NCBI GenBank assembly: GCA_964610875.1
Contig: CAZSWP010000001.1
Span: 32,001-96,000, forward strand
From: an uncultured archaeon
GTDB taxonomy: Archaea > Asgardarchaeota > Thorarchaeia > Thorarchaeales > Thorarchaeaceae
DNA: 64,000 nt
Direction of reading: 5' to 3'
Shown: one piece after another, positions 20,862 through 39,106 of the stretch
Layout: each line of letters begins with the position of its first letter
Position numbering within the stretch: the stretch's first letter is position 1
Position numbers and translations under genes: made by a program
The notes under the pieces: generated by a model
Database searches by the model: none
Told to the model about the DNA's origin: nothing
What the model saw: only the letters and a program-made list of their open reading frames with translations

Positions 20862-22649
20862 CTATTCTTTGAGAAAATCTATTATCTTTCTAAGACGGTT
20901 TCTTTTGTCTGGTAGTTCTTCTTCATGCTCTTGCAAACTGAGTATAGATGCAGTATAGTTTCCTTTGACGAGAGGCCTTAGAACTGACATTACAGCAGTG
21001 CTTGCAGTAGTTGGACTTATCTTCGCGATCTCCTCCATCTTTTTCAAGGTAGAATTCATAGCACGTTTTTTTGAATTTGGATGAAACACTAAGGCTTCAA
21101 AGATGGAAAACAAATCTTCAAAGGATTCTTGATACTCCTTTGCTTCTTCAAATCCATCAGCTGCTCTTCCTAGAAGGTCGATTCCTCTATCAAGCAAGTC
21201 CCTATCACTTGTCTTTAGTGCTTCAAGTCCTGCAGTTCTAAACCAGAGTGTTGCAAGTTCCGGAATTTCCATATTCATATAATCGTCAGCCGCGGCTTCT
21301 GCTTTCTTACTCGCAGTCCCGTAGAATGCCTCCATTCGCTTTTCATCACCAAGCTTTTCTGCACAAACTGCTGCTCTGCTATAAAATCGTGAAGCATCCT
21401 CTAGAGCTCCAGATTCTGATGCCGCTTCTGCTAGTTGCACATACACCTCTATTGCTCTCTCAAGATGCTCTGTTGCTTCCATGGAATGACCTGCTTCATA
21501 AAGTACATCCGCAGCTTCCTCAAGCGCAAGAGCATGTGCTTCTTTGTTATCTTTGTCCTTTTCCTTCTTTGCTTGTGAAAGGTAGTACGTGATCACTTCT
21601 TTGAATATATCATTTGATTCGGGAATCATTCCTGATTTCTTCAAACTGATCGCTTGATGTCTGAGGTAGGTCTTTTCGGATGTATTATCATTTTCTCGTT
21701 TGGCAATAGTCGCTAGTTCAGCAAAAAGATCTCCTGCATTTTTGTATGCCCATTTTGCTTTCATTGGGCGTCCTATTTCAGTGAACATTTCTCCTGCCTT
21801 AAAAAGCAAAGGTGCTATAACTTCTGGTCTTCCCTGCATTTTCAGATAGGCTTCAGCAGCTCTAAACATGGCCTGTTTTCTTGCATTGCTCAATCTCTGA
21901 AGTTTGTATGCTTCTTGTGCTGCGTCGTAGATATTACCTGCTTTTTCAAACAGCTCTACTGATTCATACAATTCCCCAGCATCCATCATAACACGAATAG
22001 ATTCAATAGTGTCCCCAACATCCTGCATTAATTGTGCTGCTTCTGCTAGTGCATTTCCCGCAGAAAGAAAATCTCCGGAAAGGCGACTCTCTTCTGCCCA
22101 TCTATTTGCAATTTTTATGGCTCTATTGAATATCCTACTGCCTAATTCCGAGTCTCCTGCTGAATAATACAAGCTCCCAACGCGCTTGAGAATGCCCACT
22201 GCATCTTCTAGTGATCCTTCTTCCTCCTTTATATCAGCTAGTATCTCTAAAGCATCTGCAGCTTTAATCATGAGTTCGTCTTTTTCTTCATCACTAGCAG
22301 CAAAATCTGTAGCACGCATGTAAAAGTCTGCGGCCATCCTATATTCTGTAGCATTCTCTGCGATTTTTCCTGAATCGATGTTCAATCTAACTATCTCAGG
22401 ATGCACTTCAAGATCGCTCATCCTTAGAAGCATCACAGTAGCACTCTCCATTAATCCAAAGCATTCATCGGCTCTGTAGAGGTCTTTAGCTAAAACACCT
22501 GCCTTTTCGTACAAGTTGGCTGCTTGTCTATATAGTCCTCTGGATGCAAAACTATCAGCTACCTCAGTAAGAAGAATTCTTGCTTGATTCTTCTCATCTG
22601 CCTTCAGAAGTTCTGCAATTTCATTCAGTTTTTCTTTGTCAGAGGACAA
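20862..22649 (-). CDS. Alpha-solenoid protein with alpha-SNAP/TPR-like repeats
   Basis: Repeated A/E-rich helical units such as GLYRQAANLYEKAG, GDFLSAGNALAEAA and LFEKAGNIYDAA. Confidence 0.7.
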   Translation of the reverse strand: MSSDKEKLNEIAELLKADEKNQARILLTEVADSFASRGLYRQAANLYEKAGVLAKDLYRADECFGLMESATVMLLRMSDLEVHPEIVRLNIDSGKIAENATEYRMAADFYMRATDFAASDEEKDELMIKAADALEILADIKEEEGSLEDAVGILKRVGSLYYSAGDSELGSRIFNRAIKIANRWAEESRLSGDFLSAGNALAEAAQLMQDVGDTIESIRVMMDAGELYESVELFEKAGNIYDAAQEAYKLQRLSNARKQAMFRAAEAYLKMQGRPEVIAPLLFKAGEMFTEIGRPMKAKWAYKNAGDLFAELATIAKRENDNTSEKTYLRHQAISLKKSGMIPESNDIFKEVITYYLSQAKKEKDKDNKEAHALALEEAADVLYEAGHSMEATEHLERAIEVYVQLAEAASESGALEDASRFYSRAAVCAEKLGDEKRMEAFYGTASKKAEAAADDYMNMEIPELATLWFRTAGLEALKTSDRDLLDRGIDLLGRAADGFEEAKEYQESFEDLFSIFEALVFHPNSKKRAMNSTLKKMEEIAKISPTTASTAVMSVLRPLVKGNYTASILSLQEHEEELPDKRNRLRKIIDFLKE

Positions 22650-31733: not shown

Positions 31734-32180
31734 ATGAGCTTCGATATCATTGCAGAACCTGTTGTTAAATCTCCAAAGGATGGTAAACCACGACGCGGAA
31801 GAGGATTTACTAGAAAAGAATTAGAAAATGCAGGACTTACGGTAGAAGATGCCAGAAATATGGGTCTAATTGTTGACCTTCGTCGCAGAACCACGTATGA
31901 GCAGAATGTTGAGATCCTTAAAGAATACATCCAAGATATGGAAGACATTGTGTCTGCTCTTGCAGCTGAAGAAACCTCCACTGTCGATGTTTCATTAGCA
32001 ATAGATGAGCTTTCATCCCTTAAAGCGGTGAGTGTTGAAAATGCCAAGTTATTGGTAGAAGCTGGAATCCTAAGTGTATCCGATTTGGCTTATTGCGAAA
32101 TCGATAAGGTAGCTAACAAAACAGGTATTGATGAAGAGAAACTAACCAAAATGGTGAAAGCCGCTCTAAATAAGGTATAA
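31734..32180 (+). CDS. rpl13e: Ribosomal protein eL13 fused to a C-terminal helix-hairpin-helix domain
   Basis: RGRGFTRKELENAGL...VDLRRRT...NVEIL; tail AKLLVEAGILSVSDLA...KTGI. Confidence 0.9.
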   Translation: MSFDIIAEPVVKSPKDGKPRRGRGFTRKELENAGLTVEDARNMGLIVDLRRRTTYEQNVEILKEYIQDMEDIVSALAAEETSTVDVSLAIDELSSLKAVSVENAKLLVEAGILSVSDLAYCEIDKVANKTGIDEEKLTKMVKAALNKV

Positions 32181-33347: not shown

Positions 33348-34256
33348 ATGGAACTAGAGCGCGTCTTGACAAAATTACGGTATGATGAAAAAGTCATAGG
33401 TTATGCTCTCGTAACGAATCAAGGCATTCCCTTCCTATCATTTTCACTACCTGATGAAACACTCCCTGCAATTCAGGGGACATTATTTGTTTACAAAGAC
33501 TCGCTAAAACTCATGAATGTGATGACTGGCTCAGGTACAGTGATTCTGGCACGGATTGATCCCAACTGGGTTCTTTCTGTCCTTTTTCATTCTGATGAAT
33601 CATTAGGTTCTGCTCTTCAAAAGACTCAGGATGTAATTGACTTACTCGAAGGGACAGAATTACCTCCTCCGCCAAGTACAAAGCTTGAAACTATGGAATC
33701 GCCTGAAATTCCAGAAGCAACAACTGAATCTATTGAAACTACCGAATCTTCATTGATTCCGATTGCTATTTCTGAGATTGATGTGCGACATGGTTGTATC
33801 GTCCATAAGGGACCATTTTTTTCAGAAACAGGAAAAATTGATTCAACCCTCTACAAAATGCTTGTAGATCAATTCGGGAATGTCGCACTTGATATTCTAA
33901 TGATGGTCGATGATAAGAAAACAGTCTTCAAGCTTGCTGAAACACTTGGAAAACGTGTTGAAATAGCAATTGAAGTAGTCAAATGGAGTGTTTCTCAACA
34001 CATAGTCACAATTGAGTGTCCTGAAGAACAAACACATGGTGCAACTGAAATCGTAGAACTACCCATCTTTGAGGGTGACTTGAAGAAGGCAAAGAAGGAA
34101 CACAGGCTGATCCTTAGTCACTGTGATGGAACAAAGACACTACAAGAGATAGCTGAAGAACTGGGAATCCCGTATTTCAACGCACTGCAGAGTGTGGTAT
34201 CTTACAGAGGAAAGACTCTGAAGTTCATCAAGAAGTCGAAAAAAGTAATGAAATAG
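33348..34256 (+). CDS. Roadblock/longin-like N-domain plus two winged-helix domains (paralog A)
   Basis: VIGYALVTNQGIP roadblock-like start; ELPPPP linker; ILMMVDDKKTVFKLAE and ILSHCDGTKTLQEIAEELG wHTH segments. Confidence 0.65.
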   Translation: MELERVLTKLRYDEKVIGYALVTNQGIPFLSFSLPDETLPAIQGTLFVYKDSLKLMNVMTGSGTVILARIDPNWVLSVLFHSDESLGSALQKTQDVIDLLEGTELPPPPSTKLETMESPEIPEATTESIETTESSLIPIAISEIDVRHGCIVHKGPFFSETGKIDSTLYKMLVDQFGNVALDILMMVDDKKTVFKLAETLGKRVEIAIEVVKWSVSQHIVTIECPEEQTHGATEIVELPIFEGDLKKAKKEHRLILSHCDGTKTLQEIAEELGIPYFNALQSVVSYRGKTLKFIKKSKKVMK

Positions 34257-34267
34257 GTGAAATAAGC

Positions 34268-34774
34268 ATGGGTGTAAAAGGAAAACTAGCTTGGAGTCTA
34301 AAGATCGACAAAGTATCTAAAACTTTATTTCAAGCTACATATCGCGAGCTACAGAATATATTGATGGCCACAAATGACAATGTTGACGAAATAAACCATC
34401 AAATGCAAACGATTGGGTTCAAAGTTGGAGAAACTCTTTTGATGGATTATGCTGACCGCATTAGTCAACATGCTGGTACATTCCAAGAATTCGCAAAAAC
34501 TCTTCAATTAGCATACAAAGTAAATTCTGGTCAAGACTTCACAGATGTATGGATTAGTGACGATGGACAAACTATCAAGTTTACCGACGCAAATTGTGCC
34601 ATTTGTGAGGGTGTGGTTATTACCGATATGCCGGGATTACAATACTGCAACCTCATCAGTGGGGTATTCGATGCTGTAATGAAGCTGAGGGGTTTCAAAG
34701 CTGAAACATACCAAGAATCATGTAAAGCTCTTGGGGACAGCGTTTGTACATGGACTTTACGACAAACAGTATGA
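34268..34774 (+). CDS. Bet3/TRAPPC3-like V4R-fold protein
   Basis: KVSKTLFQATYREL...NHQMQTIGFKVGETLLMDY and LQYCNLISGV match the Bet3 pattern as recalled; ESCKALGDSVC V4R tail. Confidence 0.8.
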   Translation: MGVKGKLAWSLKIDKVSKTLFQATYRELQNILMATNDNVDEINHQMQTIGFKVGETLLMDYADRISQHAGTFQEFAKTLQLAYKVNSGQDFTDVWISDDGQTIKFTDANCAICEGVVITDMPGLQYCNLISGVFDAVMKLRGFKAETYQESCKALGDSVCTWTLRQTV

Positions 34775-34788
34775 AGTAACGATTTGAG

Positions 34789-34808
34789 ATGCCTTACCTG
34801 TAAGGCAT
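34789..34808. repeat. Inverted repeat just downstream of the Bet3-like gene
   Basis: ATGCCTTAC-CT-GTAAGGCAT. Confidence 0.6.
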
Positions 34809-34872
34809 AACCATAAAAACGCTCATTCCTAGTTCAGAGTCAGAAGACATTATTCGTTAAGGATGCGATAAA

Positions 34873-35388
34873 ATGGGTCAGATTCTAGGCACTTTCGTTG
34901 GACTCATCACATCTTTTGTAATCACTTTCATTGTCCTCACATTTGGTCTATCAATTCCAGAAGATGTAATTAGTGGTACAGTTGTGAATGATTTTTTGTC
35001 CCGTTCGGATTTGGAATTGAAACTGACTGTAGTTGGAACCGTCCTCTATGCATCCAGTCTGACTGGCATTAATTTAGGCACTTTTGTGGGATATGGCGCT
35101 AGTGGTAGTACAGTATTGATGTTTCTTGCATGGGGGACTGGTGGTTTAATTGCAGGGTTACTTGCTGGTGATTTCGTAGAGGGTATCTTTGCAGCAGTGT
35201 TTGCAGTAATAGTTGGAGCATTTCTAACATGGTTATTGGTTTTCTTTGTCCAAACAACGGATTTCACAGCAATTCTCGGTACCCAATCTATACTAATTCT
35301 GCAGGTTGTTTTAGAAGGCGCACTCTATCCCGGAATAGCCGCAGTGGTGGGTGGATTACTGGGTGGTGGAATTTCAAGAGACCGTTAG
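34873..35388 (+). CDS. Gly-rich four-TM membrane protein
   Basis: Hydrophobic helices with GxxxG patterns. Confidence 0.7.
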   Translation: MGQILGTFVGLITSFVITFIVLTFGLSIPEDVISGTVVNDFLSRSDLELKLTVVGTVLYASSLTGINLGTFVGYGASGSTVLMFLAWGTGGLIAGLLAGDFVEGIFAAVFAVIVGAFLTWLLVFFVQTTDFTAILGTQSILILQVVLEGALYPGIAAVVGGLLGGGISRDR

Positions 35389-35391
35389 ACT

Positions 35392-35955
35392 TCACGTTTG
35401 ATTGTCTAGAACTCTTCCACACTCAGAACATAATATCGGATTTGATTTGAAAACCGCACCACACTCACATCTAGTTTCAATTTTAGTAATTGTGATAGGT
35501 TCTCCTCGTTCTCTCATCGTTTCAATTAATTTTATTACCGGAGCAGTTGTTATAATTGAGGTTACACTCAGTAGGAGTGACTGAATGAAGATACTTAGAA
35601 GTATCACATTTCGGTCAGCACTGTACCAAAATTGACTGTCTTTCAGCAATAATGATGAAGTTGAAAGAATCGCTAATATTACGCCCGTCCATAAAACCGT
35701 TCTAAAGATATTCCAGAATGACCTTGAAAAGACTCCTAGTATCGGTCCAGCAATTAATAGCGCAAAAATGACTGATATTAGATAGGGGCCATTTGTTAAG
35801 TTAGAAACAGTTTCTGATAGCTTCTCTGCACCATCAAGAATAAACCAAATTGAATCAAAAGGTAGGGGATAAGGAACAATCACCGATTGTAGAAACAGTG
35901 TGATTAGAGAAGCGATAATAAGGGCTCCTAGTAATCCTCCAATTAGATTTCGCAT
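35392..35955 (-). CDS. Four-TM membrane protein with a C-terminal zinc ribbon
   Basis: TM helices followed by CECG...CSECG. Confidence 0.72.
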   Translation of the reverse strand: MRNLIGGLLGALIIASLITLFLQSVIVPYPLPFDSIWFILDGAEKLSETVSNLTNGPYLISVIFALLIAGPILGVFSRSFWNIFRTVLWTGVILAILSTSSLLLKDSQFWYSADRNVILLSIFIQSLLLSVTSIITTAPVIKLIETMRERGEPITITKIETRCECGAVFKSNPILCSECGRVLDNQT

Positions 35956-36184
35956 TATGATGGCTCCTTTTCAGCTATGCATCCGTACTACAAGCACTCT
36001 TAACAGTTATTGATGAAACTAAACATACCCCTTCAGATGTGATCTGTTCAGCATAAGTACCATACGCTCTGAAATTTGCTTCCAAATTTATTGGTGTCAC
36101 CGCAATGCTTTTCAGAATGGCATCGGAAGAAAACATATACGTGTGAGTCTAGTCCGCCGTTTAATGCCGAGAGGTTAATACAAG

Positions 36185-37165
36185 ATGTCCAGTGATTTGG
36201 AACGAGCACTGTCAAAGCTTAGATTTGATGACCAAGTCTTAGGATACTCCCTTATGACAAAAGTTGGTCGTCCGTTTGTGAGTTTCGCATTTCCAGATGC
36301 ACTCTTTCCCCGCGTGAAAGATAGCATCAATTTGTACAAAACGGATTTACGTCTTATGACAATCGATACTGAGAAAGGTCTTGTTGTTCTCTCACCAGTG
36401 GATGATAATTGGATTCTCACGGTTCTTTACGTTCCCGAACTCCAACTTGGTTTGGCAATTGCAAAAACAAAGAATGTACTTCGGCTATTGGAAGGCATCG
36501 AATTACCTCCACCTCCAGATGATTTTGAAGAATCATCTGAAGATAATCTACAGGTCTTGGAGAGTATAGCAATAAAGGCAGCGTCAACATTGGCTGAAGA
36601 GGCTGCAGTAACACCACCACCAGAAGAAGTTAAAGAAGTCACACTGGAAGAAGAAGAAAGGGATCTGTCTCCTGATGATTTTGCAATAGCTCCTTCAACA
36701 GTACCCAAACGTGGCGATACTTACTCTACTGCACTCTCATTGGATTCCGATCTCTATAATCAAATGAAATTGCAGTATCGTAATTTCGGATTTGATGTAT
36801 TGATGCTTGTGAATGGCACATTGGATATCACCAAGATAGCTGATTCTATGTTCCAACCCACAGAACGTGTGATTGAATGTTTGAAATGGGCGGCATCTAA
36901 AGGAATTGTCAGTGTTCCTGTTGCGAAAAAGAGCGAAACTGGTGAAGCTATCGAAGAAAAGGGTATGGGACGTTATGTGAAATGTCCCAAATATGAAGGC
37001 GATTATTCGAAGATTCCTGAGAATGAGGCCAAGATTCTTCGTTTCTGTGATGGCTCTCGTAGTACTAATGAAGTAGCTGAATCTGGTGGCGTTCCAAAAC
37101 CAACTGTGATTAAAATTCTGGCTAAATACCGCAAAGATGTAAAAATGATTGGTAAGACAGTATAA
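36185..37165 (+). CDS. Roadblock/longin-like N-domain plus two winged-helix domains (paralog B)
   Basis: Gap-free manual alignment to 33348..34256 over the first ~109 aa, about 52 identities; VLMLVNGTLDITKIAD and ILRFCDGSRSTNEVAE. Confidence 0.65.
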   Translation: MSSDLERALSKLRFDDQVLGYSLMTKVGRPFVSFAFPDALFPRVKDSINLYKTDLRLMTIDTEKGLVVLSPVDDNWILTVLYVPELQLGLAIAKTKNVLRLLEGIELPPPPDDFEESSEDNLQVLESIAIKAASTLAEEAAVTPPPEEVKEVTLEEEERDLSPDDFAIAPSTVPKRGDTYSTALSLDSDLYNQMKLQYRNFGFDVLMLVNGTLDITKIADSMFQPTERVIECLKWAASKGIVSVPVAKKSETGEAIEEKGMGRYVKCPKYEGDYSKIPENEAKILRFCDGSRSTNEVAESGGVPKPTVIKILAKYRKDVKMIGKTV

Positions 37166-37190
37166 ACAACTATACGGAGTTTCGAAGCAT

Positions 37191-37664
37191 ATGGCAAAAA
37201 CAGAGAATCCCCTACTACTAGCAATTTATTCCTATATTGTCGATGGAGTTCTTGATGAAACTTCCAATGTTGAAGAAGCAAATGAACGATTACGGGACAT
37301 TGGGCGACTATTGGGATCGCAATTATACCTAAATACAGAGATAGCGGATAAGACTAAAGATACTATAACCACTCGTGAGGATGTTTCAAAGCTGGTCGAT
37401 GTGATTTTCAGAGTTCTTCATGATAAACGACCTAGCGATGTTGATATGGACTCTGCACGCGGTTCAATAAGAGTTAGTGATAAGGAATGTGTCTGGTGTC
37501 AAGAAGTATCACTTGAAGGCATGCGTGGTTTCGGATATTGTGAGATATTCAGTGGCATATTGGAATCTATTTTGGAATTCAAGGATGTAGATGCCAAAGT
37601 CTTCCAAGAAATGTCAAAAGCTACTGGTGCAGAAGCATGTATTTGGAACATCAGATTGGGCTAG
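37191..37664 (+). CDS. Second Bet3/TRAPPC3-like V4R-fold protein (start reassigned to 37191)
   Basis: LLLAIYSYIV...NVEEANERLRDIGRLLG; ECVWC, GYCEIFSG and GAEACIW motifs. Confidence 0.75.
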   Translation: MAKTENPLLLAIYSYIVDGVLDETSNVEEANERLRDIGRLLGSQLYLNTEIADKTKDTITTREDVSKLVDVIFRVLHDKRPSDVDMDSARGSIRVSDKECVWCQEVSLEGMRGFGYCEIFSGILESILEFKDVDAKVFQEMSKATGAEACIWNIRLG

Positions 37665-37738
37665 ACAAGTCTTGAGTCTATCAGCACAAAGAACATATCC
37701 TCTTCTGTAGACACGTTCTATTGTTGGAGCGACTCAAC

Positions 37739-38284
37739 ATGTCAAAAGAGGAAGTAATAGAATGGTGGCAAGGAAGGCTCAAAGAACGTCAATTGATGCG
37801 AGCCTTTTTCTCAAAGACTTGGAATAAAATTGGCAGTCGTATTGCTGTTATGTTTCCTGATCGTGTAAGAGACCTCTACTACTCTGCAGGTAGACTTGCT
37901 GGACTTGAAGCGCAAAGAGAGTACTTCAAGATTGGAAAACAAAAACCACCTGGTGATTTCAAAGGTATTATTGAATTCATAAAGATGGCTCTTGAAACGC
38001 TTATCGTACCTTTTGGTGACATAAAGATAGCAAAACTATACAAATTATGGTTAGACGAAGAAGCCATTATAGAAATCCGTGATAATCCGTATGCTTCTGG
38101 GTATGAAGGTGATGATCCTTCGTGCTTCTTCTTGAAAGGTTTTATTGAGTCTGTGCTTGAATATCTTACAGACTTCAACAGAATTGAATATGAGAAATTA
38201 CTTGTAGAAGAAGAAAGCTGTATGTCGACTGGTGCAGAATTTTGTGCTTTCCATATCAAACTTAGCTATCCTCCCAAAGGGTAA
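37739..38284 (+). CDS. V4R domain protein
   Basis: LYYSAGRLAG, NPYASG, SCFFLKG and EESCMSTGAEFCAF motifs. Confidence 0.85.
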   Translation: MSKEEVIEWWQGRLKERQLMRAFFSKTWNKIGSRIAVMFPDRVRDLYYSAGRLAGLEAQREYFKIGKQKPPGDFKGIIEFIKMALETLIVPFGDIKIAKLYKLWLDEEAIIEIRDNPYASGYEGDDPSCFFLKGFIESVLEYLTDFNRIEYEKLLVEEESCMSTGAEFCAFHIKLSYPPKG

Positions 38285-38356
38285 ATCATAGTACAAAATT
38301 ACATCAAACCAAGCGTCTATATATATAGAAGTGTTTCAACAGTACAGTGAAGTGCA

Positions 38357-39106
38357 ATGGGAAGAGTGAGTAAGAGGTTAGTAATGACAGGATTGCTGGC
38401 CCTGATGTTCTCAGGTTTAGTCAGTTATTTCTTAGTTAGTAATGGTTATTCCTCTTCAGAACTCATTATCCCTGACTTATCTGGTGATACAACCTCCATA
38501 AACGGTGCATTGAATGTCACATTATGTTCTTCACCCATGAGTATCGGCACTTCGGTCATTACAATCGCTTGGAATGACCATTGGCTTCCTAGTGGCATAT
38601 TCACTATGGCAATTGGCACTGTGGTTGCTGACCGGAGAAGTGAACAACAACCACTGAAGCTAAAAGAACGAATTTTGATTGCGATTGAAGACAATCCTGG
38701 TGTCCATCTGCGAGAACTTCAAAGAACAGTTGAGTGTGCCATGGGTGCACTCCAGTATCATATAAGGAATCTTGAGAAGAGTGGCATCATCGAAGCCATA
38801 AAAGTTGGCAATTCAAAGCATTTCTTCCTTTCAGGGTTTTCAGATGATGAGAAAGTTCTAGTCCTCAGTGCAGTTGGACGCAATCCAACTGTACAATCAA
38901 TTTTAAGCGAGGTCCTCTCAAAGAATCGAGTGACTCAGGCTGAATTGAGTAGGACACTCTCTTTAGATAAGAGTCTAATTTCCTATTACACAAGTACGCT
39001 CCTTAAGGCTGACATTCTGCGGACCATCAAGGTCTTCGGTCGTGAGCGTCCAATCATGTTGAATGAATGGGCACACAGTGCTATCCTTGAGATGGCAATT
39101 GTGTAG
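38357..39106 (+). CDS. Membrane-anchored double winged-helix (ArsR/MarR-like) regulator
   Basis: N-terminal TM; IEDNPGVHLRELQR...LQYHIRNLEK; TQAELSRTLSLDKSLISYY. Confidence 0.8.
   Translation: MGRVSKRLVMTGLLALMFSGLVSYFLVSNGYSSSELIIPDLSGDTTSINGALNVTLCSSPMSIGTSVITIAWNDHWLPSGIFTMAIGTVVADRRSEQQPLKLKERILIAIEDNPGVHLRELQRTVECAMGALQYHIRNLEKSGIIEAIKVGNSKHFFLSGFSDDEKVLVLSAVGRNPTVQSILSEVLSKNRVTQAELSRTLSLDKSLISYYTSTLLKADILRTIKVFGRERPIMLNEWAHSAILEMAIV

Follow-up and report, generated by a model that had tools for sequence, protein, structure and literature searches.

Three paralogues of the Bet3/V4R fold in a conserved locus of Thorarchaeota

Three genes of one fold in a single locus

We analysed a window of 64,000 nucleotides from an uncultured archaeon of the Thorarchaeaceae (assembly GCA_964610875.1, contig CAZSWP010000001.1, positions 32,001 to 96,000 of the forward strand), in which three plus-strand genes encode proteins related to the TRAPP subunit Bet3 (TRAPPC3) or to V4R domains. 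Coordinates are given as positions in this window unless another contig is named. P1 (34268..34774) encodes a Bet3/TRAPPC3-like protein of 168 residues, P2 (37191..37664) a 157-residue orthologue of the crystallised Thor-TRAPPC3 and P3 (37739..38284) a V4R-domain protein of 181 residues. All three belong to the stretch 33348-39106, which carries RB1, P1, TM1, RB2, P2, P3 and the gene for a protein with two winged helices on the plus strand, and TM2 on the minus strand. Searches of the whole source assembly (3.75 Mb, rated 95% complete) with the Pfam TRAPP model returned P1 and P2 only, and the V4R model matched P3 and one gene on another contig. Thorarchaeota proteins with a TRAPP domain were reportedly first described by Zaremba-Niedzwiedzka et al. 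in 2017.

P1 is a Bet3-like paralogue distinct from P2 and without prior study, and it falls into a starred clade of its own in the phylogeny described below. The two proteins are 25% identical (E-value 3e-23), and the alignment of P1 with P3 was not significant (E-value 0.11). P1 scored 24.9 bits with the Pfam TRAPP model, for which the gathering cut-off is 27, P1-type orthologues elsewhere reaching up to 38.5 bits; its V4R score of 13.2 bits was below the cut-off of 31. Searched as a single sequence against the PDB, P1 matched the Thor-TRAPPC3 structure 7YH3 with an E-value of 2.6e-21 and eukaryotic TRAPPC3 with 8.5e-8. The database relatives among the matches listed (at least 120) carried Thorarchaeota labels, were all at least 67% identical and were either unnamed or labelled 'hypothetical'. 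Residues 1-15 of P1 (34268-34312) form an invariant M-G-x-K-G...W...K start that P2 does not have; the same start was found in P1-type proteins of other Asgard lineages, and the structure model is weak in this segment, with a predicted local distance difference test score (pLDDT) of 48-60.

P2 is an orthologue of Thor-TRAPPC3, as indicated by its matches to 7YH2 (E-value 1.6e-77) and 7YH3 (3.8e-74). As a single sequence it matched eukaryotic TRAPPC3 in the PDB with an E-value of 0.25 only. It passed the Pfam TRAPP gathering cut-off (27.8 against 27 bits) and gave no V4R match, and it aligned with P3 over 83 residues (E-value 1e-4). An upstream TTG at 37149 was considered as the start of P2 and rejected in favour of the ATG at 37191, because all 20 orthologues begin at the matching position with M-[A/P/V/G]-x. 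The start of P3 at 37739 was likewise fixed by orthologues in 20 other genomes.

P3, a V4R protein characterised by a Cys/Glu/Cys/Cys set, occurs within the Thorarchaeota order only. It scored 41.6 bits with the Pfam V4R model (cut-off 31), gave no match with the Pfam TRAPP model and, as a single sequence, did not match eukaryotic TRAPPC3 in the PDB. The 99 relatives found in the database were nearly all labelled Thorarchaeota, several of them being named V4R or 4-vinyl reductase. The P3 model (pLDDT 82.8) was as near to Bet3 as to the V4R sensors, with a Z score of 15.2 to MopR, its top fold match, and of 15.0 to mouse Bet3, where the root-mean-square deviation (rmsd) was 3.2 Å over 149 residues. 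Among V4R domains (PF02830), which include those of the sensors PoxR, MopR and DmpR and the stand-alone MJ1460 (2OSO), P3 differs from the sensors in being a stand-alone protein with an orthogroup in one archaeal order. The other V4R gene of this genome lies at positions 7657-7815 of contig G000:C9 (49.7 bits), inside an open frame of 299 residues. A second P3-like V4R gene outside the locus (262-317 bits) was also recorded on G370:C11, G371:C19, G372:C17, G373:C116, G375:C3, G377:C21, G381:C59, G340:C242 and G392:C33.

The homology of V4R and Bet3 has been in print since Podar et al. 2008 (PMC2253512). Thor-TRAPPC3 structures come from Thorarchaeota AB25 (7YH2) and SMTZ1-45 (7YH3), and the sections of the report considered here describe a homodimer formed via two N-terminal helices, with zinc bound by four Cys, an internal cavity and eukaryotic TRAPPC3 as the closest structure (Tran, Akil, Senju and Robinson 2024, PMC10933270). 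P2 has the same four Cys, and P1 shares them together with the fold in its model. P1 differs from Thor-TRAPPC3 by the low identity given above, a conserved N-terminal extension of 14 residues and a fifth invariant Cys; it also occurs outside Thorarchaeota and is a far better match to eukaryotic TRAPPC3. These sections and the peer-review file, as far as they were covered, make no mention of a second Thorarchaeota paralogue or of the locus. The same sections report one TRAPPC3-like and one PoxR-like V4R protein in the genome of MK-D1 (Lokiarchaeia), where conservation of the zinc-ligand positions is incomplete (PMC10933270). Bet3-like and V4R-like versions thus meet in one Asgard genome there as here; the Thorarchaeota genome differs in having three versions in one conserved locus, with each Bet3-like gene 3' of a gene for a protein with a roadblock-like domain and a winged helix. 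No paper separating the second Thorarchaeota paralogue, describing its distribution over Asgard families or reporting the three-gene locus was found in a literature search whose scope left out the 2017 Asgard paper and the 2024 supplementary figures.

Similarity to eukaryotic TRAPPC3, metal sites and phylogeny

Profiles built from the three orthogroups were compared with sequences in the PDB, a reference set independent of our own selection. The P1 profile matched TRAPPC3 with an E-value of 1.3e-10 (44.3 bits), yeast Bet3 with 2.9e-8, TRAPPC6 with 0.014 and TRAPPC5 with 0.023. The corresponding values for the P2 profile were 0.0012 (21.9 bits), 0.0047, 0.0013 and 0.0024, and the P3 profile matched none of the four, its match being the V4R protein MJ1460 at 0.013. 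Expressed in bits, the P1 profile reached 44 on TRAPPC3 and about 18 on TRAPPC5 and TRAPPC6, and the P2 profile scored all three alike at 21-22.

The predicted structures gave a similar picture. The P1 model (pLDDT 80.8) superposed on mouse Bet3 (1WC8) with a Z score of 20.6 and an rmsd of 2.0 Å over 157 residues, and on the eukaryotic Bet3 set with Z scores of 20.0-20.8 and rmsd values of 1.8-2.1 Å over 152-158 residues. The match to the archaeal 7YH3 (Z 21.0, 2.4 Å over 152 residues) tied with those to eukaryotic Bet3. Lower matches were TPC6 (Z 17.0), a Trs31-type chain (15.1) and V4R sensors (12-12.8), and Foldseek agreed with this ranking. Of the three proteins, P1 thus comes nearest to eukaryotic TRAPPC3, both by sequence profile and by predicted fold.

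The initial annotation of this DNA had placed the three genes on a gradient from Bet3 to V4R, with the match to TRAPPC3 falling from P1 over P2 to P3. This order was borne out against the PDB sequences and was reversed for the first two proteins against the Pfam TRAPP model, which gave P2 27.8 and P1 24.9 bits. The outcome that would have spoken against the annotation, three generic prokaryotic V4R proteins without any score on the TRAPP profile, was not observed. Because P1 and P2 score on TRAPP and TRAPPC3 and P3 on V4R, the locus holds Bet3-like and V4R-like versions of one fold. The order P1, P2, P3 is a ranking by similarity to TRAPPC3 and not a demonstrated evolutionary ladder.

The reading frames and Cys motifs listed in the initial annotation were all found in place, and each Cys set is kept across Thorarchaeota, beyond what chance would give. 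P1 carries C110-A-I-C113, Y-C127, E-S-C152 and V-C160 (codons within 34595..34747), and these five residues are Cys in 21/21 orthogroup sequences (for each orthogroup, the window and 20 genomes of 15 genera) and invariant in 33 database orthologues. The P2 cluster (37488..37640) consists of C100-V-W-C103, Y-C117 and A-C150, with Ser142 (E-M-S-K) at the fifth site, where P1 and P3 carry Cys; C100, C103 and C150 are each conserved in 21/21 sequences and C117 in 20/21. The Ser noted earlier at this site is thus present in the window and is not a trait of the orthogroup, in which 12 of 21 sequences have Cys at position 142 and 9, including that of the window, have Ser. Loss of the fifth Cys was accordingly rejected as a mark of the P2 type, since those 12 orthologues retain it. 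P3 has no CxxC and carries S-C129, E-S-C161 and F-C169; the codons of its candidate metal ligands C129, E158, C161 and C169 span 38123..38245, and the three Cys and Glu158 are invariant (21/21). Its Cys...Glu-x-x-Cys...Cys pattern is presumably that of the zinc site of MopR and PoxR. The position of the P3 Glu is Gln in both P1 and P2.

The five Cys of P1 are the union of the four of P2 and the three of the V4R type, and the same five were found in many other Asgard homologues. Across the rows compared, the CxxC pair was present in Thorarchaeota P1 (5/5) and P2 (6/6) and in 21-23 of 26 other archaeal sequences; it was absent from P3, and its first position is Asn in 17/18 eukaryotic rows. It looks like an archaeal feature that neither P3 nor the eukaryotes have. 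The 'YC' Cys was present in P1 and P3, in 5/6 P2 and 21/26 other archaeal rows, and is Cys in 4/18 eukaryotes. For the 'ESC' Cys, P1 and P3 were again positive, P2 was variable, 23/26 other archaeal rows had it and 12/18 eukaryotic rows had Asp. The last Cys was present in P1, P2 and P3, in 25/26 other archaeal rows and in 1/18 eukaryotes. The metal sites therefore form no series toward the zinc-free eukaryotic state, the most TRAPPC3-like paralogue being the richest in Cys.

Eukaryotic TRAPPC3/Bet3 (PF04051; 1WC8, 1SZ7, 6AQ3, 3CUE) has the same fold as the P1 model and differs from the archaeal proteins at several further sites. The column of the palmitoylated Cys of Bet3 is Cys in 16/18 eukaryotic rows and in 0 archaeal rows, being Ala in P1, Ile in P2 and Pro in P3, and the zinc ligands are missing in eukaryotes. 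We know of no TRAPP complex or Rab link for the three paralogues. A further feature used for the Bet3/TRAPP family is a pair of glycines (GxxxG) in each of helices 2 and 5 (Podar et al. 2008, PMC2253512). The helix 2 motif, which is common to eukaryotic Bet3 and P1, was also found in P2 and P3; in helix 5, where the eukaryotic rows shown have GxxxG, the second Gly is replaced, giving GxxxA in P1 and GxxxS in P2 and P3.

A profile search with P1 orthologues against 1.84 billion representatives recovered 65 proteins. The first matches were archaeal proteins that scored weakly on both the TRAPP and the V4R models, in clusters labelled Odin, Promethearchaeota and Jord/Frey. Eukaryotic matches appeared from an E-value of 6e-9 and scored 78-148 bits on TRAPP; 4 of the 10 looked up were named, all as TRAPP or TRAPPC3. 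The maximum-likelihood tree comprised 62 rows and 177 columns, and its eukaryotic rows were TRAPPC3-type only, retrieved by the P1 profile and biased to that extent. Of the 65 matches, 20 were excluded: 13 were fragments shorter than 140 residues, and 7 eukaryotic rows had inserts or aberrant ends.

In this tree eukaryotic TRAPPC3 was monophyletic (100/100), P1 fell within a starred Asgard clade of 13 rows (96/82) and P2 stood on a long stem (1.1). The clade that holds P1 evolves slowly and is represented in several Asgard families. A starred branch (97/91) split P3, together with a MarR-V4R fusion, from all other rows. The eukaryotes, the P1 clade, P2 and a third archaeal clade formed an open polytomy, in which P1 and P2 were weakly joined (84/79) with other archaeal rows, apart from the eukaryotes. 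Approximately unbiased (AU) tests, for clades named after the tree had been seen, rejected neither the grouping of eukaryotes with the P1 clade (cost 2.9 log-likelihood units, p-AU 0.388) nor that of eukaryotes with P2 (6.15 units, p-AU 0.356). The phylogeny suggested at the outset thus separates P3 from the Bet3-like rows and leaves the order of eukaryotes, P1 and P2 polytomous. The data do not demonstrate that one locus holds evolutionary intermediates: the tree is polytomous, both groupings are allowed and the metal sites form no series.

Conservation of the locus, distribution and gene loss

The gene order L13e-PfkB-RB1-P1-TM1-TM2-RB2-P2-P3-HTH, where HTH is the helix-turn-helix protein with two winged helices, was kept in 20/20 fetched loci, all chosen for carrying both TRAPP matches on one contig; the conserved locus measures about 8 kb in Thorarchaeota. 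RB1 (33348..34256, plus strand) encodes 302 residues, in which a roadblock-like N-domain is connected by a variable, Pro-rich linker to a winged helix at the C-terminus; the protein gave a weak Pfam HTH_47 match (E-value 6e-4). It ends 11 nucleotides before P1 and lies directly 5' of it in the window and in all 20 loci. Its paralogue RB2 (36185..37165, plus strand; 326 residues) gave weak Robl_LC7 (E-value 0.14) and HTH_47 matches; it is separated from P2 by 25 nucleotides, is 63-72% identical among the 20 loci and precedes P2 every time. P2 and P3, 74 nucleotides apart, are neighbours in 23/23 Thorarchaeota loci and in the sister-family genome G311.

Between the two modules lie TM1 (34873..35388, plus strand), a hydrophobic protein of 171 residues that matched no Pfam family, and TM2 (35392..35955, minus strand), a hydrophobic protein of 187 residues with a C-terminal CxxC...CxxC tail and a weak zinc-ribbon match (E-value 0.19). 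Both were found in 20/20 loci, TM1 also in the loci of genomes G318 and G391 (L046 and L047) described below. The protein that follows P3 in all 20 loci (38357..39106, plus strand; 249 residues) has two winged-helix DNA-binding domains, with matches to HTH_HVO_0163_N (E-value 2.7e-15), HTH_24 and MarR_2. The first gene of the conserved order, a homologue of ribosomal protein L13e with a helix-hairpin-helix tail, lies at 31734-32180 on the plus strand. Elsewhere in the window, a minus-strand gene (20862-22649) encodes 595 residues with a match to SNAP (soluble NSF attachment protein) and tetratricopeptide repeats (TPR; E-value 1.7e-10), and may be a plain TPR protein.

The distribution of the three types was counted in 400 Asgard genomes. 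Full-length P1-type genes were present in 70 of the 85 genomes of the window's family and in other families, among them f4 (3/3), f14 (19/19), f15 (5/5) and f30 (2/5); they were not found in f22 (0/135), f8 (0/31) or f11 (0/22). P2-type and P3-type genes occurred in 77/85 and 78/85 genomes of the family, respectively, each in the one sister-family genome (1/1) and in 0/313 genomes elsewhere.

In some lineages with P2, P1 has been deleted or has decayed. In G318, which is 97% complete, exactly RB1 and P1 are gone between PfkB and TM1, about 190 bases being left (G318:C16 4750-4938) and the rest of the locus being intact. G391 retains a remnant of 32 P1 residues next to an intact RB1 (G391:C66 7699-7794), and in G392 P1 has a stop at codon 22 (L025, G392:C45 6492-6995). 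P1 is thus decaying in one genus, to which G391 and G392 belong, while RB1 and P2 stay. In-frame stops in P1 were also flagged in G322 and G349. The sister-family genome G311 has a single module, in the order RB, Bet3-like gene, P3 (L038, G311:C48 3502-5627), and its Bet3-like gene scored nearly equally with both profiles (111 bits for P1, 120 for P2). This module may represent the state before the duplication or the state after the loss of one module.

An obligate heterodimer of P1 and P2 is unlikely, because P2 persists without P1, P1-type genes occur singly elsewhere and the P2 type crystallises as a homodimer. Contact between P2 and P3 may exist, since the two share their phyletic pattern and adjoin in all loci seen.

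Partner genes and functional interpretation

We consider it fairly probable that the locus holds three old paralogues of the V4R/Bet3 fold organised in two parallel assemblies with the RB proteins, and that the paralogues are variants rather than demonstrated intermediates. In the P2 type, as others have shown, zinc links the beta-sheet with a helix, so that a hydrophobic cavity is formed, and dimerisation is through the two N-terminal helices; P1 and P3 would be built alike. Each Bet3-like protein would then be a subunit, for ligand binding or as a scaffold, of the roadblock-plus-winged-helix protein whose gene directly precedes its own. P1 would pair with RB1, and P2, perhaps joined by P3, with RB2, and no obligate P1-P2 heterodimer would form. 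That a Bet3-like protein works with its upstream RB protein is suggested because the gene pairs are tight, duplicated and lost together. In f4, f14 and f30, families other than that of the window, the P1-type gene is directly preceded by a gene whose product has a similar winged helix at its end. The output of such an assembly is possibly, though tentatively, a protein platform of the GTPase-regulator type; control of DNA binding appears a less likely output.

Several observations weigh against this reading. The binding of RB proteins to Bet3-like proteins is proposed from gene order only, and that order was read from loci selected for both TRAPP matches. A complex prediction for RB1 and P1 gave scores of 0.10 and 0.27 against a mark of 0.32, a level that is uninformative either way. 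The roadblock and winged-helix labels of RB1 and RB2 come from sub-threshold Pfam matches, an RB1 profile matched no roadblock, longin or NPRL protein in the PDB, and no small GTPase gene was found within about 15 kb of the locus. Outside the family, 3 of 8 loci lack a recognisable partner. As to the place of P1, 40 of the 41 best rows of the Pfam TRAPP model across the family were P2-type, with P2 above P1, and the AlphaFold training set included Bet3 structures and did not include 7YH3, which may flatter the match of P1 to Bet3.

Some further observations concern the RB proteins and their counterparts. RB1 has three invariant Cys, Cys150 (H-G-C), Cys224 (E-C-P) and Cys259 (L-C-D-G), and His148 is nearly invariant; these four residues lie between the linker and the winged helix and may form a putative metal site of their own. 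In G308, a gene for 209 residues just 5' of the P1-type gene (L039, G308:C4 3573-4199) gave a weak, nearly full-length match to Sybindin, the family of TRAPP longin subunits (E-value 0.028; 14.9 bits, cut-off 25); the protein also has a winged helix, and a PDB sequence search with it gave nothing. In a natural fusion of 296 residues (protein P0127; L044, G310:C200 3321-4208), the P1-type domain is preceded by an N-domain of about 130 residues. This N-domain matched no Pfam family and reached a probability of 0.2 against the RB1 profile, so that no relation to RB1 was shown. No P1 fusion longer than 306 residues was found in the search, which is weak evidence.

The same data may be read in two other ways. 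If the three genes were surviving steps from a V4R protein (P3) over P2 to a near-eukaryotic Bet3 (P1), forming heterodimers as Bet3 does with Trs31 and Trs33, this would agree with the similarity ranking reported above, the higher Z score of P1 than of P3 against mouse Bet3 (20.6 and 15.0), the starred branch that parts P3 from every Bet3-like row, the failure of the AU test to reject eukaryotes with the P1 clade and the retention of three genes in one locus. We nevertheless regard such a succession as improbable. The tree is polytomous, with P1 and P2 weakly placed with other archaeal proteins and away from the eukaryotes, and the grouping of eukaryotes with P2 is equally unrejected. The Cys count climbs toward the most Bet3-like paralogue, although these Cys are nearly all missing from eukaryotic TRAPPC3, and the absence of CxxC is common to P3 and the eukaryotes. 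Occurring in one order only, P2 and P3 are poor candidates for stages older than eukaryotes. The proposed heterodimers fit poorly with the loss of P1 while P2 stays, with P1-type genes that stand alone in other families and with the homodimeric crystal described for the P2 type in the sections of the 2024 report considered here.

The genes could also be split ligand-sensing transcription regulators, in which a protein of the Bet3/V4R fold senses a small hydrophobic molecule and controls the DNA binding of its winged-helix partner; such a system would correspond to the fused V4R regulators split over two genes and would have no link to membrane traffic. The top fold matches of P3 are the bacterial V4R domains of PoxR, MopR and DmpR, which act as phenol sensors in transcription activators, and V4R has been described as a hydrocarbon-binding signalling domain that is often fused to regulatory domains (PMC2253512). 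One protein recovered here, P0183, is a natural fusion of a MarR-type helix-turn-helix and V4R, and another, P0172, has a winged-helix-like S10_plectin match. The RB partners end in a winged helix, the two-winged-helix protein follows P3 in every locus compared, and the lack of a nearby GTPase gene also agrees with sensing. On the other hand, the winged-helix matches of the partners are below the Pfam cut-offs, winged helices also serve protein contacts, and the N-domain of the partners gives weak roadblock matches. A different N-domain is naturally fused to the P1-type domain in P0127, and a longin-TRAPPC3 fusion in Heimdall is described in the part of the 2024 report considered here (Tran et al., PMC10933270). 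We hold this explanation to be rather unlikely, and continue to favour paralogous variants in two parallel assemblies.

A more far-reaching extension would make the split of P1 and P2 older than eukaryotes, with P1 the sister of Bet3/TRAPPC3 and P2 related to Trs31/Trs33, Thorarchaeota still running both, together with partners of the roadblock or longin type, in a hetero-oligomeric precursor of the TRAPP core. A hint of this may be seen because the P1 profile favours TRAPPC3 and the P2 profile scores TRAPPC3, TRAPPC5 and TRAPPC6 alike, and both AU results are compatible with such a split; we regard it as highly improbable.

Collectively, these results bear on the choice of proteins for studying the Bet3 fold in archaea. 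The only archaeal Bet3-like type studied at the bench is the P2 type, which is fast-evolving and limited to the Thorarchaeota order. Questions about the role of the Bet3 fold before eukaryotes are better addressed with P1, because it is closer to TRAPPC3 in sequence and is shared by several Asgard families. Three variants of the zinc site within a single genome also make up a natural series in which the eukaryotic replacement of the zinc clamp could be examined, and the patterns of gene loss supply hypotheses on binding partners.

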